A DNA stretch of 64,000 nucleotides from Candidatus Omnitrophota bacterium. GTDB taxonomy: Bacteria > Omnitrophota > Gorgyraeia > Gygaellales > Profunditerraquicolaceae. Position numbers and translations under genes: made by a program. Position 1 is the stretch's first letter. Every line of letters begins with the position of its first letter. The stretch spans positions 490,041 to 554,040 of the forward strand of contig JAKLGJ010000001.1 of assembly GCA_022710715.1 (NCBI GenBank), in the 5' to 3' direction. Below are positions 4,031-53,050 of the stretch, piece after piece. The notes under the pieces were generated by a model. It did no database searches. It was not told the origin of the DNA and saw only the letters and a program-made list of their open reading frames with translations.

Positions 4031-6004
4031 TCACAGCAGGCGTTTTTGGGAAAGGGATTTGATGCGGTCGCGCAGGCCGGCCGCTTTCTCGAAGTCGAGA
4101 TTGCGGGCTGCGAGTTCCATCTCGTATTCCAGCTCGGCGATGTATTTTTTAAGTTCGTATTCATCTCTGGCTTCGCCGGTCAGTTCGGCCACGAATGTTT
4201 CGGCGTCAGCCATATCCTCTATCCCCTTTTTTATCTCTTTCTGTATACTGCGCGGGGTAATGTCGTTGGTCCGGTTGAATTGCAACTGGATGACCCGGCG
4301 CCGGTTGGATTCAGCGATGGCCTGTTTCATTGATCTGGTCACGGTGTCGGCGTACATGATTACCCGGCCGTTGAGATTGCGCGCGGCGCGGCCGGCGACC
4401 TGGATCAGGGATGTGGCCGAGCGCAGGAATCCTTCTTTATCCGCGTCCAGGATGGCGACCAGGGAGACTTCCGGGAGGTCCAGCCCCTCCCGCAGCAGGT
4501 TTATCCCGACCAGGCAGTCGAATTCTTTTTTGCGCAGGTCGCGCAGTATCTTCGAGCGTTCGATGGTTTCGATCTCGGAATGCAGATATTTGACTTTCAG
4601 TTTCTTCTCCTGGAGGAATGCGGTCAGGTCCTCGGCCATGCGTTTGGTCAGAGTGGTTACCAGCACGCGCTCATTTTTCTGCGCGCGGGATTTGATCTCT
4701 CCGGCCAGGTCGTGGATCTGTCCTTTGGACGGCCGGATGATTATTTCCGGATCGATCAGTCCGGTGGGACGGATGATCTGTTCGATGATTGTGCCCCGGC
4801 TTTTGGTTATCTCGAACTCCGCCGGCGTGGCGGAGACAAATACCGCCTGTTTGACGAGCGCTTCGAATTCGTCGAATTTCAAAGGGCGGTTATCCTGGCA
4901 GGAAGGCAGGCGGAACCCGTAGTCTATCAGGACGGCTTTGCGCGCCTTGTCTCCTTCGAACATGCCCCGGATCTGCGGGATGGTGACGTGAGATTCATCG
5001 ATAACGATGAGGAAATCCCGGGGGAAGTAGTCTATCAGGCAATAGGGGCGCGAACCGGGCGGTCGTCCGGAGAGATGGCGCGAGTAATTTTCGATGCCAT
5101 GGCAGTAGCCCAGCTCTTTGAGCATTTCCATGTCGTAGGTCGTGCGCTGCTCCAGTCGTTGCGCTTCCAGCAGTTTGTTCTCGCCGCGCAGGTACTTCAG
5201 GTGGTCCTGGAGTTCCGCCTGGATGGTTTTGATTGCGGCGTCTATGCTGTCCGGGGACGCCAGAAAGTGTTTTGCCGGGTAGATCGCGGTTTTTTCCAGC
5301 TGACGCAGGATGTCGCCGGATACCGGGTCGATCTCGCTGATCTTCTCTATGGTGTCGCCGAAGAAATCAATGCGCAGCGCGGTTTCTTTGTAGGCGGGAA
5401 AAACTTCCACGATGTCTCCCCTGACCCGGATGCGGCCGCGAATGAATTCATAGTCGTTGCGTTCATACTGGGTGGAGATCAGACGGGAGATACACTCGTC
5501 CCGGGCGACGCTCTGGCCTCGTTCCAGCACAACCAGCATGTTTTTGTAGTCATCGGGGGAGCCCAGATTATAAATGCAGGAAACCGAAGCCACGATAAGT
5601 ACGTCGTTGCGCGACATCAGCGAACTGGTAGCGGACAGGCGCAGCCGGTCCAGGCGGTCGTTGATGGAGGAATCCTTTTCGATATAGGTGTCGGTGGCGG
5701 GAATATAAGCTTCGGGCTGGTAATAGTCGTAATAGGAGACGAAATATTCTACGGCATTGTCGGGGAAGAATTCCTTGAATTCGGAGTAAAGCTGGGCGGC
5801 CAGGGTTTTGTTATGGGAGATGACCAGCGTCGGCCGGTTGATTGCCGCGATAGCGTTGGCCAGGGTGAAAGTTTTGCCGGAACCGGTGACTCCCAGAAGG
5901 GTCTGGAAGCGCCTGCCGGAAAGGATCGATTCCGTCAGCTGCCCGATCGCTCTCGGCTGGTCGCCGCACGGTTTGAATGAGGAAACGAGTTTGAACTTTT
6001 CCAT
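4031..6004 (-). CDS. uvrB: excinuclease ABC subunit B
   Basis: FKLVS..GDQP..I, GVTGSGKTFT Walker A, helicase motifs, C-terminal UvrB/UvrC interaction helix. ORF-caller start 6031 trimmed to MEKFKL. Confidence 0.95.
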   Translation of the reverse strand: MEKFKLVSSFKPCGDQPRAIGQLTESILSGRRFQTLLGVTGSGKTFTLANAIAAINRPTLVISHNKTLAAQLYSEFKEFFPDNAVEYFVSYYDYYQPEAYIPATDTYIEKDSSINDRLDRLRLSATSSLMSRNDVLIVASVSCIYNLGSPDDYKNMLVVLERGQSVARDECISRLISTQYERNDYEFIRGRIRVRGDIVEVFPAYKETALRIDFFGDTIEKISEIDPVSGDILRQLEKTAIYPAKHFLASPDSIDAAIKTIQAELQDHLKYLRGENKLLEAQRLEQRTTYDMEMLKELGYCHGIENYSRHLSGRPPGSRPYCLIDYFPRDFLIVIDESHVTIPQIRGMFEGDKARKAVLIDYGFRLPSCQDNRPLKFDEFEALVKQAVFVSATPAEFEITKSRGTIIEQIIRPTGLIDPEIIIRPSKGQIHDLAGEIKSRAQKNERVLVTTLTKRMAEDLTAFLQEKKLKVKYLHSEIETIERSKILRDLRKKEFDCLVGINLLREGLDLPEVSLVAILDADKEGFLRSATSLIQVAGRAARNLNGRVIMYADTVTRSMKQAIAESNRRRVIQLQFNRTNDITPRSIQKEIKKGIEDMADAETFVAELTGEARDEYELKKYIAELEYEMELAARNLDFEKAAGLRDRIKSLSQKRLL

Positions 6005-6958: not shown

Positions 6959-9743
6959 GTTTCACCGCCTTTAGTTTGATGAGGGTTTCTTTCAGTTCCG
7001 CAAGCCGCTGACGCTCTTTTTCCACGACTTCCGCAGGCGCTCGCTCCACGAACGATGTATTGGCAAGGGTGTTCTCTTTGGCCTTGACGTCGGATTCCGC
7101 TTTTTTGATCTTTGCGTCGATCTTTGCCTTTTCTTTTTCCACGTCCACCACACCCTCCAGTGAAAGGGAAATATGCACATCGGATACGACGCTGGTGACA
7201 GTCGATTTCCGATGTTCCAGTTTTTCCTGCACGGCGAGAGTACCCAGCCGGCAGAGATAGCCGATGTGGCCTGATGCGTGTTCGATAAGTTCGCGCTTGG
7301 GTTTGGTGGCCGCAGCCACGACGGCATGTAAGTGCTGGGTGGGCAGGATTTCCAGGTCCGCGCGCATGTTCCTGATCGCGGTGATCACTTCAAGGATCAG
7401 CGCCATCCGCTGCTCGGTTTTCTTATCGATGAGCTGTTCCTGCAGATGCGGCCAGGATTGTTGCATGATCAATCCTTCCGACGGCTTCAGGCGCGACCAG
7501 ATTTCCTGGGTGATGAACGGCATGAACGGCTGGATTGCGCGCAGGAATTTCTCCAGCACCTTGAACATGATCAGCTGGTTTTCCGGCTGCTTGATCTCGG
7601 GCTTGATGATTTCCAGGTACCAGTCGCAGAATTCATGCCAGAAAAAGCGGTACAGCAGGTTTGCCGCTTCGTTGAATTTATAGGTCTCAAGGTTTTTGTT
7701 GACCTCTTTAAGCGTGGAGTAGAGCCGGCTGATGATCCAGCGATTGACCAGGCTCATCTGTTCATTTTTGAACGTCAGGCACAGGTCGCGGTTTACCTGG
7801 CTGTTGTCCAGGTTCATCATCACGAAACGCGAGGCGTTCCATATCTTGTTCGCGAAATTCCTGCCCTGCTCGAAACGCTCTTTGTTCAGGAAGACATCCT
7901 GGCCCTGCGCCGTGATCGAGATCAGGCTGAAACGCAGAGCGTCGGTGCCGTATTCATTGATGATCTCCAGCGGGTCGATAACGTTGCCCAGAGACTTGGA
8001 CATTTTTTTCCCTTCTATATCACGCACGGTGCCGTGAATATAGACGTCCTTGAAAGGAATATCGCCCATGAATTCGAATCCGGCCATGATCATGCGCGCC
8101 ACCCAGAAAAAGATGATTTCCGGCGCCGTGACCAGCGCTGAGGTGGGATAGAAGAATGCGAGTTCCTCCCGGACATCGTGATCGATCCCCTGCGCATCCT
8201 TGTGCGTTTGTTTCGGCCAGCCGAATGTGGCGAACGGCCAGAGCCAGGAGGAAAACCACGTGTCGAGCACGTCTTCATCCTGGTATATATCCGTCGCTCC
8301 GCAGTGCGGGCAGGCGGCGGGTTTGACCGCAGCTACGATCAGTCCGGGGATGTGTTGTTTTTCGTGCTTGATGTTTTTTTTGCCGGTTGCCGCTGTCTGC
8401 GCCGGGCTGTCCACGCTCGCCGGTTTATAACAGGCGCGGCAATAATAAACCGGGATGCGGTGTCCCCACCATATCTGGCGCGAAATGCACCAGTCCTGAA
8501 TATTGTTCATCCAGTTCAAGTAGACTTTGGTCCAGCGTTTGGGGTAAAAAGAGATGCGGCCGTCTTTGACCGCGGCGATTCCGGGGACAGCCAGCGGTTT
8601 CATACGCACGAACCATTGTTTGGAAAGATACGGTTCGATGATGGTGTGACAGCGGTAGCAATGCCCGGCGGATAATGCATGCGGTTCGATCTTTTCCAGC
8701 AACCCCTTTTCTTTCAGATCTTCGATGATCACTTCCCTGGCTTCGAAGCGGTCCATGTCTTTGTACTCGCCGCCGTTTTCATTGATCCGCGCGTCCGGAT
8801 GCAGCACGTTGATGAACGCCAGCGCGTGCTTTTTTCCGGTCACGTAATCGTTGGGATCGTGCGCGGGAGTGATTTTTACGCAGCCGGTGCCGAAAGCCGG
8901 ATCGACCATGTCGTCGGCGATCACCGGGATCTCCCGGTTCATCAGAGGCAGGAGCAGGGTTTTACCAACGATTTTCTTATAGCGCTTGTCTTTGGGGTTG
9001 ACCGCCACCGCGGTGTCGCCGAGCATGGTTTCGGGCCGCGTGGTGGCTACGATGACGTATTCATCGGGCGCGTCTTTAAAAGGATAACGCAGAAAATAAA
9101 GATTTCCCTGCAGGTCGCGATGCGGTGCTTCTTCGTCCGCCAGCGCGGTCTGGCAGCGGGGGCACCAGTTGATGATGTAATTGCCCTGATAGATCAAACC
9201 TTTTTCGAAGAGGCGGATGAAGACTTCCTTGACGGCTTGCGAATAATCTTCGTCCATGGTAAAGCGTACTCTGCGCCAATCGCAGGAGGCGCCGAGTTTC
9301 TTTAACTGCCGGATGATGGTCGAACCGTACTCTTCTTTCCACCGCCAGACTTCTTCCAGGAATTTGTCGCGGCCCAGGTCCTGGCGTTTCCTGCCTTCTT
9401 TGCCGAGCTTGCGTTCCACCACGTTCTGGGTGGCGATGCCGGCGTGATCGGTTCCGGGCATCCACAACGGCTCAAAGCCTTTCATGCGGTGGAAGCGGAT
9501 GAGGATATCCTGGATGGTGTTGTTCAGAGCGTGGCCCATGTGCAGGATGCCGGTGACATTGGGCGGCGGAATAACGATGGTGAACGGTTTCTTCCCCGGG
9601 GTAACGGTCGCGTTAAACGCGCCCGCGTCCGACCAGGCCTGGGACCACCTGTCTTCTGTTTCTTTGGGAGTATATGCTTTAGCGAGTTCGGTCAAGGTTG
9701 TGTTTTCCTGAATGTCGGTAAAGGGGACGTTTTTTTTCGCCAT
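6945..9743 (-). CDS. valS: valine--tRNA ligase
   Basis: HMGH (PPNVTGILHMGHALN) and KMSKS (KMSKSLGN) class I motifs plus C-terminal coiled coil. Start approx (MAKKNV; ORF-caller TTG at ~9773); 5' end overlaps cimA 3' end. Confidence 0.95.
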   Translation of the reverse strand: MAKKNVPFTDIQENTTLTELAKAYTPKETEDRWSQAWSDAGAFNATVTPGKKPFTIVIPPPNVTGILHMGHALNNTIQDILIRFHRMKGFEPLWMPGTDHAGIATQNVVERKLGKEGRKRQDLGRDKFLEEVWRWKEEYGSTIIRQLKKLGASCDWRRVRFTMDEDYSQAVKEVFIRLFEKGLIYQGNYIINWCPRCQTALADEEAPHRDLQGNLYFLRYPFKDAPDEYVIVATTRPETMLGDTAVAVNPKDKRYKKIVGKTLLLPLMNREIPVIADDMVDPAFGTGCVKITPAHDPNDYVTGKKHALAFINVLHPDARINENGGEYKDMDRFEAREVIIEDLKEKGLLEKIEPHALSAGHCYRCHTIIEPYLSKQWFVRMKPLAVPGIAAVKDGRISFYPKRWTKVYLNWMNNIQDWCISRQIWWGHRIPVYYCRACYKPASVDSPAQTAATGKKNIKHEKQHIPGLIVAAVKPAACPHCGATDIYQDEDVLDTWFSSWLWPFATFGWPKQTHKDAQGIDHDVREELAFFYPTSALVTAPEIIFFWVARMIMAGFEFMGDIPFKDVYIHGTVRDIEGKKMSKSLGNVIDPLEIINEYGTDALRFSLISITAQGQDVFLNKERFEQGRNFANKIWNASRFVMMNLDNSQVNRDLCLTFKNEQMSLVNRWIISRLYSTLKEVNKNLETYKFNEAANLLYRFFWHEFCDWYLEIIKPEIKQPENQLIMFKVLEKFLRAIQPFMPFITQEIWSRLKPSEGLIMQQSWPHLQEQLIDKKTEQRMALILEVITAIRNMRADLEILPTQHLHAVVAAATKPKRELIEHASGHIGYLCRLGTLAVQEKLEHRKSTVTSVVSDVHISLSLEGVVDVEKEKAKIDAKIKKAESDVKAKENTLANTSFVERAPAEVVEKERQRLAELKETLIKLKAVKHALE

Positions 9744-44363: not shown

Positions 44364-44368
44364 TTTAT

Positions 44369-44428
44369 AGGGACGTTCCCCAAGGTACCACCCCTGTAAC
44401 CAGGGGTGGTACCTTGGGGAACGTCCCT
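44369..44428. repeat. perfect 28-bp inverted repeat (hairpin, 4-nt loop TAAC) 5 nt after the stop of the 1080-aa gene; arms are copies of a 27-nt element also at 53022-53050
   Basis: AGGGACGTTCCCCAAGGTACCACCCCTG-TAAC-CAGGGGTGGTACCTTGGGGAACGTCCCT read directly; no T-tract follows. Confidence 0.9.
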
Positions 44429-44612
44429 AATATATATACCCGTGGGCTTGAAATCTGTACATTTTGTGTTATACTTAAAGTGTAATAAGCGAACTTTGAC
44501 AGATCAGTTCCTACTGATAAAGGCTAACTAGCAGTAATGCTGGGGCGCAAAGCGACAGTTCTTCTGTTTGTGCAGAAGAAGGCTGCGTTACCAAAGAGGA
44601 CGTATTCCTGAA

Positions 44613-44641
44613 CCCAAGGATATCTCTCTTGGGTTTTTTTG
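44613..44641 (+). terminator. intrinsic terminator-like hairpin (CCCAAG..CTTGGG + T8)
   Basis: Stem cccaag/cttggg followed by ttttttt. Confidence 0.6.
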
Positions 44642-44648
44642 TTCTCTA

Positions 44649-44708
44649 CCCCGGTATTCTGCCTGTCTGCCCATTCGGGCAGACAGAACCTGTTGCCGGG
44701 GTTTTTTA
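44649..44708 (+). terminator. second intrinsic terminator-like hairpin immediately upstream of the small ORF RBS
   Basis: Nested stem CCCCGG...CTGTCTGCCC-ATTC-GGGCAGACAG...CCGGGG followed by TTTTTT. Confidence 0.6.
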
Positions 44709-44721
44709 TTGAGAGGTTGCA

Positions 44722-44988
44722 ATGAACGAACATGACGAAAAAAATCAGCGCGTGGTGACTTTTTTGAACCGGGATGAGGTCGATTTCCTGGATAAACTGG
44801 GCAAAGACGCTCTGTTTTCCAGCGGCTCCAAGCTCTCCCGCGCCAAGCTGATCGCCTGGTTGATCGATATGCTTAAAGGTTTGGGGATTGACGGCAAGGA
44901 TCTTAAGTCGGAAAAAGATCTGGAAGCTCGGGTCCTGGGGGTGTTGAAACAGATTTCCGAACAAAAAGAAAGCTACCCGCCACGGTAG
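44722..44988 (+). CDS. small hypothetical protein, possibly ribbon-helix-helix-like DNA-binding
   Basis: GAGAGG RBS 5 nt before ATG; QRVVTFLNRDEVDFLDKLGK resembles an RHH beta-strand/helix start; 88 aa, Lys-rich C-terminus. Confidence 0.4.
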   Translation: MNEHDEKNQRVVTFLNRDEVDFLDKLGKDALFSSGSKLSRAKLIAWLIDMLKGLGIDGKDLKSEKDLEARVLGVLKQISEQKESYPPR

Positions 44989-45193
44989 ATGCGTAAGAAA
45001 GTCGAGGCCCTGGGGAGGGGAATATTTGGGGTCACTGGATTACCAGGGGTCAGCCTGGGATTGATTCAGGGGGCAGTAGATTTAAGCGTTACGGGGATGG
45101 GGTCCCCGACCACACCAGCCACGGTTAGCAATGCATGATGGACAGCCCGGAGGTAGGGCTCAAACTTGCAACGCCACCAGCCACGGTAGAGTT

Positions 45194-45220
45194 TCATTGT
45201 GCGAGAGCCATCGAAAGGTG
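45194..45220 (+). terminator. intrinsic terminator-like hairpin upstream of the 45256 gene
   Basis: AGAGCCA-tcgaaagg-TGGCTCT followed by TTTTTA. Confidence 0.5.
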
Positions 45221-45255
45221 GCTCTTTTTATCACTCAACTAAGGAGGAATGACTG

Positions 45256-46182
45256 ATGCGTAACGTACTTCTGGCCGCAGTCCTGGCAAGTGTTTTGTGT
45301 TCTTGCGTATACGCTGAACAAGCCACTAAAATGCTGGTAGAAACACCGCCGCAGGAAACGATATTCGTCGCTGAAAACGAAGCGCAGGTGCCTGCTGCCC
45401 GCTATCCCAAATTCGCTGAATTTTCCGGGGATAATCCTAACTGCGAGGCGTATTTACAGACCGATTATTCCGGTTCGGGTGATGAAGCCGACGGAATCGC
45501 CCAGAACGGTTTGAGCCAGGCTCCCTTGAACCTGCGCAGCAAGATGGGGTCGGGATCCGCTACCGGCTCAAAGATGCAGTTTGTCTCGATTAGCGAACAG
45601 GGCAGCAACAAGCCGTTCGCCGTCGACAATTACCAGATCCCTGCGGAGTATCGCAAGACCGCCAAGCTGCTGATCAGCTGGACGGTGCGTATCGAAGGAT
45701 GGGAAACTCCCGGCATGAACATCAGCCCGGGATTATGCAGCAACTGGTATGGAACGTCCATACAGGAATTCCCTGCCAACGACGTCAAGCTGGGGTTGTT
45801 CATTACCGATCATAATCAAGAAGTCCGCAAAGGCGCGGAAGGTTCTTTGACCATTCCTCCCGGCCCGCCGCAGGAGATTATTCAGGTTCCTCCTCCTCCG
45901 CCAAGCCCAAACGTGCCAAGCAATGATGGAAGCTCTCAACCCGCGAATTCTGACTGGGGACCGAACAACGGCGCGCCTCCCTTCGATCTCTCGGATCCGG
46001 TTATCAGCGGCAGTTACCTGTTGAGCCCTTCAGATTTCGAAAACGGGGAATTTCCCGAGGTCATCAGGCGTATAGAGATCAAATGGCAGAATCAGACGTC
46101 GCAGATTCTGGTTTCTCCGGCAAAAATGCGCACCCTTACGATCATGCTTATGCCGACGGGCAAGGAGAGTTCGGGGAATTAG
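45256..46182 (+). CDS. secreted Pro-rich hypothetical protein
   Basis: AAGGAGG RBS; signal peptide MRNVLLAAVLASVLCSCVYA; PPGPPQEIIQVPPPPPSPNVPS linker. Confidence 0.55.
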   Translation: MRNVLLAAVLASVLCSCVYAEQATKMLVETPPQETIFVAENEAQVPAARYPKFAEFSGDNPNCEAYLQTDYSGSGDEADGIAQNGLSQAPLNLRSKMGSGSATGSKMQFVSISEQGSNKPFAVDNYQIPAEYRKTAKLLISWTVRIEGWETPGMNISPGLCSNWYGTSIQEFPANDVKLGLFITDHNQEVRKGAEGSLTIPPGPPQEIIQVPPPPPSPNVPSNDGSSQPANSDWGPNNGAPPFDLSDPVISGSYLLSPSDFENGEFPEVIRRIEIKWQNQTSQILVSPAKMRTLTIMLMPTGKESSGN

Positions 46183-46245: not shown

Positions 46246-46560
46246 TTATTCTATTTTTACATCCGTGGAGAAACTGGCATTGTCCGGCGCAAGATTAACC
46301 GTGAAGGACAGGTTGCTGTAGGCGGAGTTCTTGTGCTTGCGCACGTGGCCCAGCTCAACGGTCTGGGTAATGTTGCGGTCCCATAACGTTTTGGACCTGA
46401 CTCCCAACTGTCCCCATTCCAGGCTATGCATAACGGCATTGCCGGTGACCGTGTTCCTGAAATCCGTTTCCACCAGGCTGTGCACGTGGCTGATCGAAAG
46501 GAAAAATGCCACTATGATTGAAGAAATAATGGTTAATATGCCTAAGAGTAATCCGATCAT
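46246..46560 (-). CDS. small membrane protein, last gene of pilin-like operon
   Basis: Hydrophobic N-terminus MIGLLLGILTIISSIIVAFFL; 4-nt start/stop overlap with upstream pseudopilin gene. Confidence 0.4.
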   Translation of the reverse strand: MIGLLLGILTIISSIIVAFFLSISHVHSLVETDFRNTVTGNAVMHSLEWGQLGVRSKTLWDRNITQTVELGHVRKHKNSAYSNLSFTVNLAPDNASFSTDVKIE

Positions 46561-47204
46561 TTGACCACATCGGTAAACCAGAGCCGAAAACCGTCGATTT
46601 TGGCGATCTTTTTCGGCAATCCCGGTACCGCCTTTTTGCCCGTACTTTCAGCAGAAATAGTGACGACCAGAAAATCAGGCTCATTCTCGATCTCAGCCTC
46701 GAATTTCCTGCGGAAATATATTCTGGGTTTGAATTTGCCTTCTACCAGGATGAAATCAATAGATTGTCGTCCGGTCGAACTCACCACCGTGCTTAGCGGT
46801 CCGTCTGATTTGCGCAAGATCAGGTTGCCGCCGGTATCGATGCAATACCGGTAGAGAGCGTTATCAGTGCGGGTGTCGGGCGTAACGGCATTGATATTGT
46901 TTTCGCCTTCGAAAGCGAATTCGGTTTTCATTTCAGTTTCTTGATCCGCGGAGAATACCGAATCAGGGGCGATGGCGATGGCGCTGACACAGCGGCGCTG
47001 AATGTCGTCCAGTGCGTTGTTGATCTGCAGGTACATATTGTAGCGCTCCGCATAGACAGTAATCTGCCTGGAAGCAAAATTCAGCAGCGTGAAGACAGCG
47101 CCGACAACCACGACCCCCATGATCATCCCGATGATCAGCTCGATGAGGGTGAACGCTTTACGGTTTGTAGTCCCTGGCAGTCTTGGATTCATAGGCGACC
47201 GCAT
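46557..47204 (-). CDS. pseudopilin-like protein with prepilin-type N-terminus (Ala at -1)
   Basis: NRKA|FTLIELIIGMIMGVVVVGAVF: T4P/T2SS class III leader with Glu+5 but Ala instead of Gly at -1. Confidence 0.6.
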   Translation of the reverse strand: MRSPMNPRLPGTTNRKAFTLIELIIGMIMGVVVVGAVFTLLNFASRQITVYAERYNMYLQINNALDDIQRRCVSAIAIAPDSVFSADQETEMKTEFAFEGENNINAVTPDTRTDNALYRYCIDTGGNLILRKSDGPLSTVVSSTGRQSIDFILVEGKFKPRIYFRRKFEAEIENEPDFLVVTISAESTGKKAVPGLPKKIAKIDGFRLWFTDVVK

Positions 47205-48141
47205 TTATGGAGATCTCCTTGAGTGTTACTTTGCCTTCCACGAGATATTTGTCCGCATAGAACCTGTTCACTGTGTTGATATCTTTGCACCATTGCACCG
47301 TCATCGTATGCGGGCCCGGCGGGACAGTATCCATTCCGAAACTGACGCTGATAAACGGCTGGGTTAAGATCGGGGTGCGGCTGACCGGCCCTACGGGAAC
47401 GCCGTCAAGCAGAAAACGGGTCCAGATCGTAGCATGCGGCAGCGCCTGTTCGATGGTGGTTTTACTCGCTTTGACCACAAGATTGACCATGATCAGTAAA
47501 TCCTTGGGGACTTTAAAATCAAACGTCAGCGCAGCCGGAGGAATTATTTCATAATCGCCGTTTCCGGGGACTGTACTGTCAGGCAGATTGAGCTGGGTGC
47601 GGGTCGCCTGAGAGAGCGCGAATTCGTTTATCCAGGCCCCCGCAGGCACTGCCGGGGTCGATGCGTCATCGGGGTCATATTCTTTATTGACCGATTCGGT
47701 ATGGATATAGGGATACGGCATGGTGTTTTTCAGGCGGATTTCTTTCCGCGCACCGCCAGGATCGGCATAAGAAACATTAAGGGTCAGGTTTTTATAGGGG
47801 ATTTCAACCGGGGTGGTGGGATTTTTCAAGGTGCCCGGGGTGACGTCCATGGTCCAGCTGAAAACCAGCGCGTCGCTATAGTCCGGTTCATTGAACTGCC
47901 ATTGTCCCTGATACGTCCCCGGTTCCAGGGCCGCATCGTAATAGGACCTGGCCATGTATTGTTTCATCTTGAGGGCTGCAAAGCTGACGGCGCGGGATTT
48001 ATACTCTGCCTGTTTGAGGTTGGTAAACCCCCCCACCAGCGCGGATACGACAAAAACTGCCACCAGGGAGAAGATCACCACTACGACGATGATCTCCAGA
48101 AAGGTCATAGCTTTTGTACGGGATGAAAGGCGCATGCTCAT
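47158..48141 (-). CDS. pseudopilin-like protein with prepilin-type N-terminus (Ala at -1), 327 aa
   Basis: RTKA|MTFLEIIVVVVIFSLVAVFVV leader-like segment with Glu+5; large C-terminal domain. Confidence 0.55.
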   Translation of the reverse strand: MSMRLSSRTKAMTFLEIIVVVVIFSLVAVFVVSALVGGFTNLKQAEYKSRAVSFAALKMKQYMARSYYDAALEPGTYQGQWQFNEPDYSDALVFSWTMDVTPGTLKNPTTPVEIPYKNLTLNVSYADPGGARKEIRLKNTMPYPYIHTESVNKEYDPDDASTPAVPAGAWINEFALSQATRTQLNLPDSTVPGNGDYEIIPPAALTFDFKVPKDLLIMVNLVVKASKTTIEQALPHATIWTRFLLDGVPVGPVSRTPILTQPFISVSFGMDTVPPGPHTMTVQWCKDINTVNRFYADKYLVEGKVTLKEISINAVAYESKTARDYKP

Positions 48142-49502
48142 TGCCTGTTGCGCAGGATGATAAGTTCCGCCCAGCTTAATTCCATATGCATATTCTGGTA
48201 GTCTGACGGCGGGATAAAGTAATAGACGACAACGGTGTATTTTCTGCTGCTTTTAAGTTTATCTTTCGGCACGCTGGTCAATCCGTTGATGGAGAAGCTC
48301 GAACGCATCGAGCGGGCATGGAACGGGCTTTGATGAATAAGCGTCCTGCTCGTATCAGAGTCCGGGTCTCCTTCGAAGACTTTAATCATCGAATAAAAGA
48401 GGATATCCTTGAGCGGGTCGATCTCGTTGCGCAGAGGGCATTCGGCCTGCAATTGCCAGATGATCGATACTTTTTCGTTGCTCTTGGCTACGAAAGAGTA
48501 CGTCAGTGCGGTCTCATCGATAGGTTCAAAACAGTGTTTGGCGGTATCCGCATTGGTAATGAACTCATTATATTGCCTGATAGTTTCCTGGCATCCGGGA
48601 AGCGTGAAATTGCGGCACTGTGTGTTATTGATACGGGTTTCGCAACTGAGGCATACCTGTATGCCCATGCCGTTGCACAGGTCTCTGCGGCAGCAATCCA
48701 CTCCTCTGCGGCATTCTTCCCATTGTGTGGTGTAGTCGTGGCACGCCTGGACGTACTGACGGAAGTTCGCAGTCGGGGAATATTTAAAACATAAAGGTGG
48801 TTGGCAGTATTCCACGTCAGGGTCGATCGGCTCAGTCGGTTTAGCCGGCGGCGGATCTTTGGGATCGGGCGGCGGCGGCGGTGGATCCAGCTTATCGATG
48901 TCGTAATACGGTTCGACAGGACAGCTGCCTACGGTTGCGCAATTGATGTGGCAGAAGGGTTGCGGTTCGTAATCGTCTTCCGGGCAATACCAGAACCCGT
49001 CACGGCTTTCGCACGAGCCGTTGGGTGCCGGAGGGTTAGCCGGGCAACCGCGCTGCTGGCAGTGCGGTATACCTTCAGCGCAGGGATTGGTGATCGCTGC
49101 CGGACAGGTGACGGCCGGGCAGTCGTTGACGTTGAACGGCACATCCGCGCAGTCATATATGCTGTTTTCGAACTTTGTGCAACGCCGGTACATCGAACCG
49201 TCGGGATAGAAAACCAGGCAGCAATCAGGGCAGGACCGCCACAGCTGCATGCAGTAATTACAGTTCTGCATATCGATCAGGAACTGGTTTTTGCAGGCGG
49301 TCGATTCGTAGAGCTTTAACGGCGGGGAAAAATTCTTTCGCACGGTTTGCATCGAATGATCGCGGGGGATATATTTGATGGTGGTTTCTGATTTTTTTTC
49401 TGCCAGCGCATCATGAGCGCCTGCCAGGCATGCGCAAAAGAAAACAACCGCCATCGTGAGTCTCCGACCTGCGATAGCGGCTGTAGGTTTTCTCATCAAC
49501 AT
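48138..49502 (-). CDS. secreted cysteine-rich protein with poly-proline linker (candidate tip adhesin)
   Basis: Signal peptide; ~50 Cys in first ~300 residues (CNYCMQLWRSCPDCC, CPAVTCPAAITNPCAEGIPHCQQRGCP); DPPPPPPDPKDPPPAKPTEP linker; 4-nt overlap with downstream pseudopilin. Confidence 0.55.
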   Translation of the reverse strand: MLMRKPTAAIAGRRLTMAVVFFCACLAGAHDALAEKKSETTIKYIPRDHSMQTVRKNFSPPLKLYESTACKNQFLIDMQNCNYCMQLWRSCPDCCLVFYPDGSMYRRCTKFENSIYDCADVPFNVNDCPAVTCPAAITNPCAEGIPHCQQRGCPANPPAPNGSCESRDGFWYCPEDDYEPQPFCHINCATVGSCPVEPYYDIDKLDPPPPPPDPKDPPPAKPTEPIDPDVEYCQPPLCFKYSPTANFRQYVQACHDYTTQWEECRRGVDCCRRDLCNGMGIQVCLSCETRINNTQCRNFTLPGCQETIRQYNEFITNADTAKHCFEPIDETALTYSFVAKSNEKVSIIWQLQAECPLRNEIDPLKDILFYSMIKVFEGDPDSDTSRTLIHQSPFHARSMRSSFSINGLTSVPKDKLKSSRKYTVVVYYFIPPSDYQNMHMELSWAELIILRNRQ

Positions 49503-53021: not shown

Positions 53022-53050
53022 CAGGGGTGGTACCTTGGGGAACGTCCCCT
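53022..53050. repeat. third copy of the 27-nt element CAGGGGTGGTACCTTGGGGAACGTCCC (single arm)
   Basis: Identical over 27 nt to the right arm at 44401-44427; 4 nt after stop of the 53054-55867 gene. Confidence 0.85.

Follow-up and report, generated by a model that had tools for sequence, protein, structure and literature searches.

Within a 64,000-nt window of a Candidatus Omnitrophota genome (contig JAKLGJ010000001.1), we analysed a locus whose features all lie on the plus strand. It comprises a promoter-like site, a predicted riboswitch aptamer of the cyclic diguanosine monophosphate (c-di-GMP) class I, two tandem intrinsic terminators (T1 and T2), an open reading frame (ORF) of 88 amino acids (aa), three copies of a short motif, a third terminator (T3), and an ORF of 308 aa (Table 1). 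Our results make it very probable that positions 44448-45230 represent the promoter, the leader, the first cistron and the 3' region of a c-di-GMP-controlled transcription unit that is conserved throughout Candidatus Omnitrophota. Transcription from a sigma-70-type promoter would start near 44482 and proceed through the aptamer into the two tandem terminators; read-through transcripts alone would carry the 88-aa gene, followed by the three motif copies in sense orientation and then by T3, at which the riboswitch-gated transcript probably ends. The leader (44482-44725) folds far better than shuffled sequence (z = -6.8; 0/200 shuffles as good), and the repeat-bearing 276 nt (44985-45260) present no overall fold signal relative to shuffles (z = -0.16). 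The approximately 265 nt between the 88-aa ORF and T3 hold the repeat copies without containing a convincing ORF.

The initial annotation of this region had described two plus-strand hairpins with T tracts, the second ending 3 nt before the ribosome-binding site (RBS) of the small ORF, as well as another terminator after the repeats. All of these elements are present; the three terminators are supported by folds and the sequence itself, and T1 by a terminator scan as well. The existence of the three repeats also holds, the sequence CCACGGTAG being found four times in the window against 0.25 expected; the second and third copies had been placed at 45105-45118 and 45167-45179, which is 10 nt off.

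Table 1. Features of the c-di-GMP riboswitch locus, in positions of the window.
Feature	Position	Strand	Remarks
Promoter-like site, TTGAAA-16 nt-TG-TATACT (extended -10)	44448-44475	+	Predicted transcription start ~44482
c-di-GMP-I (GEMM-I) riboswitch aptamer, predicted	44506-44601	+	Rfam RF01051 match 44512-44595
Intrinsic terminator T1, stem GAACCCAAGG/CUUGGGUU + U7	44610-44640	+	Hairpin 44610-44636, 7-T run ending 44640; terminator scan and fold
Intrinsic terminator T2, long interrupted stem + U6	44649-44707	+	Outer stem 44649-44654/44696-44701, inner stem, T6 at 44702-44707
RBS GAGAGG	44711-44716	+	3 nt past T2 end; serves ATG at 44722
88-aa ORF	44722-44988	+	Conserved small protein
Motif copy 1, GCTACCCGCCACGGTAGA	44972-44989	+	Overlaps stop codon of the small ORF
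Motif copy 2, CACACCAGCCACGGTTAG	45111-45128 (18-nt frame)	+	45115-45128 as short repeat
Motif copy 3, GCCACCAGCCACGGTAGA	45173-45190 (18-nt frame)	+	45177-45189 as short repeat; 13 nt ahead of T3
Terminator T3, stem AGAGCCAUC-GAAA-GGUGGCUCU + UUUUA	45204-45229 (stem 45204-45225)	+	Sequence and fold
RBS AAGGAGG of the next gene	45241-45247	+	After T3
308-aa ORF, signal-like N-terminus	45256-46182	+	Downstream gene

The promoter-like site fits 10 of the 12 sigma-70 consensus positions in addition to the TG extension. TTGAAAT...TATACT also precedes a paralogous riboswitch locus of the same genome (L207; loci are cited by such labels throughout), and TGTTATACT was found ahead of the aptamer in L166, L174 and L179. 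An Rfam scan of the leader, which had been suggested with the initial annotation, returned the c-di-GMP-I family (RF01051) on the plus strand at 63.1 bits (gathering score, 35), and our own covariance model gave 92.5 bits to the aptamer of the window. The expectation that the roughly 200 nt before the first terminator encode a small RNA was correct in that this segment is a structured RNA; it was incorrect in that the RNA belongs to this known family instead of being a small RNA of unknown type. Among 21 orthologues, pairing in the helices reaches 98.8%, nine pairs being altered on both sides, and helices P1b and P2 are kept by compensatory changes. The covariation score reaches 0.42 versus 0.15 for shuffles (0/500 reach it), and slid controls do not exceed 0.09.

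The identity of the ligand can be approached through the bases of the binding pocket. Aligned to the Rfam consensus, the window reads AAAG-GC, CGC-A-AAG and UUA-C-CAAAG, and in all 21 aligned aptamers the A47 position is occupied by A (CGCAAAG), the G20 position by G (AAAGGC) and the C92 position by C. We take these bases to be G20, A47 and C92 in the Vc2 numbering of the crystal structures. Two variants of the same clan were considered. The signature of the GGC variant is a G at position 47, and riboswitches of the cyclic GMP-AMP (cGAMP) type, GEMM-Ib, carry an A at position 20. The window aptamer has neither signature. The GGC model (RF03167) scored 57.3 bits in E-value mode, below its cutoff of 59, and was rejected on this score and on the A at the A47 position; the cGAMP type was rejected since position 20 is G and not A in the window and in its orthologues. 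The A at position 47 and the G at position 20 therefore exclude both types. As judged from its sequence and covariation, this structured RNA is a canonical c-di-GMP-I aptamer and adds a new member to a known class; it putatively binds c-di-GMP and thereby alters gene expression. The stretch from the promoter to the aptamer (44482-44510) is also conserved (..TAAAGTGTAA..ACTTTGACA(A/G)AT..) and shared with the leaders of L166, L174 and L179; it is followed by a variable hairpin that can take in the 5' strand of the aptamer (AUCAGU/ACUGAU in the window).

The association between this aptamer and the small gene extends across the phylum. Sampling one genome per species returned 151 relatives, from which 80 loci were taken. 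All of the 20 loci scanned with Rfam presented an aptamer of the c-di-GMP-I clan 50-280 nt upstream of the small gene and on the same strand, and a covariance model built from these 20 loci (R1) detected the aptamer in nearly all of the remaining 60. Many of the orthologous aptamers score slightly higher with the GGC model. Downstream of the small gene, 38 loci encode a secreted protein of about 100 aa with the motif SCTIPAIPGVNAP; this family, encoded directly after the 18-nt motif in these loci, has a conserved mature N-terminus (..VSCTIPAIPGVNAPL; e.g., L010:2819-3115, L014:2814-3143 and L023:2775-3071) and did not match any Pfam or NCBIfam family. Another 14 loci present a membrane protein of about 110 aa (YGDNFPVP...) in this place, and in distant relatives the downstream gene encodes a HAMP-GAF-GGDEF diguanylate cyclase (nine loci) or a PilZ protein (two loci). 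Because of the aptamer linkage and of these GGDEF and PilZ neighbours, the small protein can be assigned, on genomic context, to the c-di-GMP network. The 308-aa gene of the window falls outside all of these downstream groups and is unrelated to the ~100-aa secreted protein.

Other arrangements were found in the same genome and in other lineages. The paralogous locus L207 (3640-4000; small gene P0077) has the same promoter type and an aptamer, also detected by R1, that insertions in P1b and P2 have enlarged to about 206 nt. The locus lacks the 18-nt motif, and its next gene encodes a 369-aa protein with weak FliG/MgtE_N similarity. A second c-di-GMP-I aptamer is present between the small gene and the small secreted-protein gene in L055 (2271-2373), L056 (2758-2865), L063 (2808-2978) and L065 (2761-2857). 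In those lineages, it occupies the place that the 18-nt motif has in the main subfamily.

The small ORF is clearly a gene, since it has many homologues and invariant residues, as the initial annotation had supposed. We found 524 homologues, many of them 65-80% identical over the full length, and those with a taxonomic name were nearly all from Omnitrophota; 24 residues are invariant among 28 sequences of the family. An identical protein is encoded on contigs of the Candidatus Omnitrophota metagenome-assembled genome GCA_035390565.1 and on metagenome contigs of up to 1.6 Mb. The same annotation had called the protein ribbon-helix-helix (RHH)-like, and this membership is unsupported by our searches. 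No Pfam family was hit by any of the 28 members (for the RHH families, at E <=10), no NCBIfam match was obtained for the 88-aa protein, and its PDB profile search returned nothing usable. In a comparison by hhalign with eight RHH proteins, the sequences of which were entered by hand, the probability was 0.4%. The AlphaFold2 model, a low-confidence monomer with a predicted local distance difference test score of 62, is all-helical (helices at 17-34, 40-54 and 64-83), with residues 10-16 not called as a strand, and Foldseek found nothing in the PDB at E below 4 with this model. A residue pattern of the type strand-helix-G-x-x-x-S-R-helix is nonetheless present (QRVVTFL..DEVDFLDKLGKD..GSKLSRAKLIAWL). 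The protein resembles RHH factors such as CopG, Arc, MetJ and CdbA in its small size, in a hydrophobic N-terminal stretch followed by two helices, and in its c-di-GMP context; it differs from them in having no sequence or profile similarity, no structural match, and an extra C-terminal helix. CdbA of Myxococcus is a c-di-GMP-binding RHH protein. Most likely, the 88-aa protein would be a nucleic-acid-binding or signalling adaptor of the c-di-GMP network.

The two terminators ahead of the small gene are themselves conserved. Between the aptamer and the start codon, 30 of the 35 parsed leaders of the main subfamily possess at least two structures composed of a hairpin and a U run; in distant subfamilies, there is at most one terminator. 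Nearly all leaders of the main subfamily share the T1 sequence (AACCCUAAAG..CUUUAGGGUUUUUU), and T2 is conserved as a structure. Furthermore, 15 leaders carry GUUUGCC in T1 and/or T2, either in the loop or in the 3' arm, where about 0.007 per leader would be expected from the rest of the loci. This sequence is the exact complement of GGCAAAC in the aptamer, which includes G20. Among the 13 leaders with GGCUAAC in the aptamer, not one has the corresponding complement. Complementarity also exists between the 3' half of T1 and the 3' strand of P1 (CCAAAGRGG), with matching changes in the window, L008 and L016, and terminators of orthologues carry CCUUU-GG, complementary to the P1 3' strand CCAAAGG. 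Because terminator loops and arms complement aptamer strands in this way, we infer that both terminators may communicate with the one aptamer, in which case c-di-GMP binding would decide termination at T1 and at T2. Two candidate antiterminators, one pairing the P1 3' strand with the T1 3' half and the other pairing the T1 5' arm with CUAGGG of the aptamer, were rejected as neither is thermodynamically better than T1. The region had been described as an attenuator or the 3' end of a small RNA; the terminators do fit an attenuator, and a c-di-GMP-I aptamer, not an unknown free-standing small RNA, precedes them.

In several respects, this leader resembles typical RF01051 riboswitches: its score is above the cutoff, the P1b loop is of the GNRA type, P2 covaries, the bases G20, A47 and C92 are present, and a terminator lies directly downstream. 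It is unlike them in that two consecutive terminators follow a single aptamer, an arrangement conserved among 30 of 35 close relatives, in that these terminators often carry the complement of the aptamer sequence, and in that the regulated family is an uncharacterised small protein almost confined to Omnitrophota. Our literature search found nothing on c-di-GMP riboswitches in Omnitrophica/Omnitrophota and no description of the small-protein regulon or of a motif with complementary hairpins in giant genes. Since no published description was found, we consider the leader with one aptamer and two terminators to be new, and the double terminator and the motif to be new features.

The repeats of the window are instances of a motif that was recovered 45 times in related loci and that presents the 18-nt consensus cCC(A/G)CC(A/T)GCCACGG(A/T)AGG, with all 45 instances in sense orientation. 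In most of the loci L008-L051, no more than about 40 nt separate CCACGG from the stop codon of the small ORF, and the hexamer is always on the plus strand. The motif can encode the end of the small protein as ..QPR* or ..LPR* (CCA CGG TAG), ..PPATEG (GCC ACG GAA GG) or ..GHGR (C CAC GGN AG), or it can lie just past the stop. The same bases are thus read in three frames or lie outside the coding sequence, which indicates that conservation acts at the nucleotide level. Each locus carries one to four copies, located 5-60 nt ahead of the next RBS, at times with an intervening hairpin; such a hairpin follows the motif by 5-10 nt in L014, L018, L030, L031, L033, L041 and L047. No family of Rfam 15 covers the motif, either in the window (E <=5) or in five multi-copy loci (E <=1).

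The motif is not restricted to the 3' side of the small gene. We scanned metagenome contigs for the exact pattern CCCACCWGCCACGGWAGG and found at least 119 stretches. Among the 123 matches listed, 16 have an RHH-like ORF upstream and four more have just the secreted-protein motif downstream; our own model detected the aptamer in 19 of the 66 loci searched among the matches listed. In L166 and L174, the motif follows T1 within the leader, ahead of the RHH-like gene, and in L179 it follows T1 directly ahead of a secreted-protein gene with no RHH-like gene. In L206 (1214-1360), it constitutes the P2 apical loop of a divergent c-di-GMP-I-like aptamer (28.6 bits with our own model). The initial annotation had proposed that the repeats form an operator array. 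An array specific to this locus is not compatible with a motif that is phylum-wide, strand-specific, conserved at the nucleotide level in three frames, and found in leaders and in one aptamer loop as well. In our view, the motif most probably works at the RNA level, as a module of the read-through transcript, rather than as a DNA operator, because it occurs in an aptamer loop and in leaders, because its orientation is fixed, and because its complement is found in loops selected on the RNA strand (see below). As an RNA, it would act either as a cis element just upstream of the next RBS or as a trans-acting antisense seed.

Several other explanations of the motif were discarded. A local hairpin between CC(A/G)CC and GG(U/A)AGG with an (A/U)GCCAC loop has invariant paired positions and no covariation, and the association between R(-5) and W(+6) is not of the Watson-Crick type. 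CsrA sites, sigma-54 or extracytoplasmic function sigma factor promoters, ZTP, guanidine and signal recognition particle motifs, and complementarity to helix 45 of the 16S rRNA gave short word matches alone and no Rfam hit. Finally, the complement of the motif (e.g., the minus strand of 45173-45190) contains GCTGGTGG, which is identical to the Chi octamer of E. coli; this is probably a coincidence, and Chi would explain neither the fixed position of the motif in riboswitch loci nor the hairpins.

The direction of the switch is less certain than its existence. We lean towards an OFF switch, in which the ligand would lock the aptamer and both terminators would form, because the loops and 3' arms of orthologous terminators complement aptamer strands (GUUUGCC with GGCAAAC, and CCUUU-GG with CCAAAGG). 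Several observations weigh against the interpretation presented so far. The aptamer of the window reads GGCUAAC and its T2 contains just GUUGCC, so that complementarity between aptamer and terminator is weak here. In the minimum free energy (MFE) structure of the leader, the aptamer helices coexist with both terminators, and no obligatory antiterminator is visible. In the distant locus L206, the aptamer 3' strand ACCGGGUUGCC doubles as the 5' arm of the downstream terminator GGUAACCCGGUUUUUU, a textbook ON design that is opposed to the OFF lean. These three points leave the ON or OFF sense uncertain. In addition, the motif copies of the window are degenerate, matching 14-16 of the 18 positions, and the ~100-aa secreted-protein gene that usually follows the motif is absent. 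The accessibility of the motif core is just slightly higher than with shuffled flanks, 0.44 versus 0.41 (p = 0.02, from data that are non-independent). The promoter, the termination and the read-through are themselves predictions.

In contigs of low to medium GC content, most of the matches listed were of another kind: the motif forms the apex of a hairpin of about 80-110 nt, and several such hairpins are found per contig; some matches in high-GC contigs look like chance. The hairpin-bearing loci are open in one frame over their entire 5-14 kb. These giant ORFs carry GGDEF, RelA/SpoT, glycogen-debranching, starch-synthase, B12-binding and radical-SAM domains, and the hairpins sit between the domain-coding segments (loci L088-L206; examples at L097:4393 and L092:6835 and, on the minus strand, at L118:4040-4057 and 8500-8517 and L115:1952-1969 and 2115-2132). 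The motif is always antisense to the giant ORF, and its complement is translated in all three frames (LPWLVG, PSVAGG and FRGWWG). On the mRNA strand, the 20-nt loop therefore reads UA-CCUUCCGUGGCUGGUGGG. The eight flanking base pairs are paired in 76% of cells, a value that includes some chance hits, and seven of the eight change on both sides. The covariation score is 0.61 versus 0.23 for shuffles (0/500 reach it), and slid controls reach at most 0.29.

Selection on these hairpins appears to act on one strand. The loop is closed by C-G in 13 sequences and by U-G in 11, which the ORF-sense strand alone permits. In folds with the motif forced to be unpaired, 20 of 24 hairpins are more stable on the sense strand (mean difference of -6.5 kcal/mol), and the 24 hairpins contain 92 G-U pairs on the sense strand versus 41 on the motif strand. 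Stem covariation and selection on the ORF-sense strand therefore suggest that the mRNAs of giant genes carry hairpins whose loop exactly complements the motif of the riboswitch transcripts. Rfam has no family for these hairpins at its gathering score in 19 hairpin-bearing loci. The domain content of the hairpin-bearing ORFs matches the description of the Archaeovorin giant genes of Omnitrophota, whose products were reported to contain GGDEF domains and which were reported to have PilZ genes downstream (10.1101/2023.11.21.568195), so that these ORFs probably represent Archaeovorin-type genes. Two preprints on Omnitrophota giant genes make no mention of hairpins, palindromes or riboswitches, and a protein search with a 483-aa segment of a giant ORF returned no match.

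The hairpins invite comparison with a known type of genomic repeat. Rickettsia palindromic elements are in-frame palindromic repeats in coding regions. The elements described here, which lie outside the window, are similar in being hairpin units of about 80-110 nt inside ORFs that leave the frame unbroken, occur in three frames and sit between domains. They are different in sharing one conserved 18-nt apical sequence on unrelated but covarying stems, and in their uniform orientation and selection on the mRNA strand. In a few cases, the elements are nested: a full hairpin element (outer stem GCCCCGTTGG...CCAACGGGGC) is lodged in a further motif copy, which it splits after GCCAC and before GG, with AC repeated on both sides. 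Such sites take the form CCCCACCAGCCAC/hairpin/ACGGAAGG and were found in L095 (~440-600), L097 (~4330-4530 and ~8190-8390) and L153. The arrangement suggests insertion into the motif itself.

What the motif might do as an RNA can be viewed in two principal ways. It is possible, although we propose it tentatively, that the motif is a trans-acting antisense seed and that read-through RNAs pair with the UA-CCUUCCGUGGCUGGUGGG loops of Archaeovorin-type giant-gene mRNAs. Such pairing would link the level of c-di-GMP to the expression or processing of giant genes, and the reverse is also conceivable, with giant mRNAs titrating the small transcripts. The complementarity between motif and loop spans all 18 nt, and we single out this model because it alone explains it. 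The motif is always sense in riboswitch RNAs and always antisense in giant ORFs. In the window, copy 3 and the T3 hairpin 13 nt further on have the layout of a seed followed by a terminator. This layout is similar to that of kissing-loop antisense RNAs and small RNAs derived from 3' untranslated regions, in which a single-stranded seed lies by a terminator hairpin and finds a perfect complement in apical loops. Unlike in those systems, the seed would here be 18 nt long, phylum-conserved and riboswitch-gated, with many target hairpins within giant ORFs, and the pairing is predicted from the complementarity. The 64-kb window contains neither a giant gene nor a hairpin-type copy of the motif.

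Alternatively, the motif may act on translation and solely in cis, as a C-rich sequence 5-60 nt before the next RBS that would sequester the Shine-Dalgarno sequence or bind a translational regulator. We regard this explanation as possible, although less likely than not. The motif always precedes an RBS, whether that of the secreted-protein gene or that of the RHH-like gene, and several loci show part complementarity to the extended Shine-Dalgarno sequence (CACCU/AGGUG, CGCC/GGCG, CAGCC/GGCUG and ACACC/GGUGU). Such complementarity is, however, confined to a subset of loci, and AGGUG is the extended Shine-Dalgarno consensus anyway. A cis element would leave both the invariant GCCACGG core and the conserved exact complement in giant-gene hairpin loops unexplained, and in the window T3 stands between the motif and the next RBS.

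We consider it improbable that a small mobile palindromic element accounts for the motif copies, as its remnants or its target sites, and that they have no function here. A mobile-element origin is suggested by nested copies and may coexist with function: each giant ORF contains many hairpins that present the motif apically, copies are at times identical (one pair in L097), and elements are nested inside split motifs with a repeated GT/AC dinucleotide (L095, L097 and L153). Moreover, the sequence upstream of the motifs in riboswitch loci (GTCAGTGCCCGGAGG) resembles the outer stems of one hairpin subfamily. The riboswitch loci nevertheless keep the syntenic position and orientation of the motif phylum-wide, and we saw no association with transposases. 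The stems within a contig are mostly unrelated in sequence and yet covary, which points to long-term structural selection and not to recent transposition.

It also seems unlikely that the main product of the locus is the short terminated RNA (~160-225 nt, aptamer with T1/T2), acting as a free-standing sponge for c-di-GMP with incidental read-through. A massively expressed riboswitch RNA has reportedly been observed in Bdellovibrio and would be a parallel. This idea is favoured by the strong promoter match, by the conservation of the double terminator, and by the MFE fold, in which two efficient-looking terminators form whatever the aptamer does. Omnitrophota have moreover been described as predatory or host-dependent (10.1101/2023.11.21.568195). 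However, nearly all of the 80 species have the aptamer linked to this one small gene, which argues for cis control, and the presence of aptamer-complementary sequence in terminator loops and the distant relatives with one terminator or none also speak against a sponge. The two ideas are compatible, in that a sponge would not preclude cis regulation.

Finally, the proposal that the 88-aa protein is an RHH repressor and that the three repeats are its DNA operators for the downstream secreted-protein gene is very unlikely: its compatible residue pattern (an N-terminal strand, a helix, G-x-x-x-S-R and a helix), the modelled helices at 17-34 and 40-54, the two CCAC/CCRC units 7 bp apart and the proximity of the motif to the small gene in most relatives are outweighed by the negative profile and structure searches (Pfam, NCBIfam, PDB, Foldseek and hhalign), the strict orientation of the motif, its presence in transcripts without an RHH-like gene (L179) and inside an aptamer loop (L206), its complement in RNA-strand-specific hairpin loops, and its absence from the paralogous locus of the same genome. 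The 7-bp spacing recalls the RHH omega repressor, which uses heptad operators.

Two other features of the neighbourhood were recorded. The convergent operon on the minus strand (46246-49502) encodes proteins with N-terminal methylation motifs of the pilin/pseudopilin type. The initial annotation had considered the repeats as possible regulators of this operon, read there as an adhesin operon, and we found nothing that ties the motif to it. A conserved type II secretion-like locus adjoins giant genes in Omnitrophota (10.1101/2023.11.21.568195). A perfect 29-bp inverted repeat (TAGGGACGTTCCCCAAGGTACCACCCCTG, a TAA loop and the complement) without a T tract lies at 44368-44430, 5 nt past the stop of a gene for a 1101-aa glycan-phosphorylase-like protein and just ahead of the riboswitch promoter. 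A third, solo copy of its 27-nt arm is located between two minus-strand genes (53022-53048), and the alignment with the 96%-identical strains L006 and L007 does not extend over the inverted repeat.

To our knowledge, Omnitrophota is a phylum with almost no cultured members, and its giant genes are the largest known bacterial genes. Our results delineate a concrete candidate c-di-GMP regulon in this phylum, in which an extremely conserved small protein is joined by secreted proteins of ~100 aa that form one family, with connections to GGDEF and PilZ genes. The leader with one aptamer and two terminators, whose loops complement the aptamer, could sharpen the response of the riboswitch. The repeats of the window led to a phylum-wide 18-nt motif that ties riboswitch-gated RNAs to the hairpins of giant genes. 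If true, trans pairing between them would provide an RNA-level route from c-di-GMP to the giant genes.

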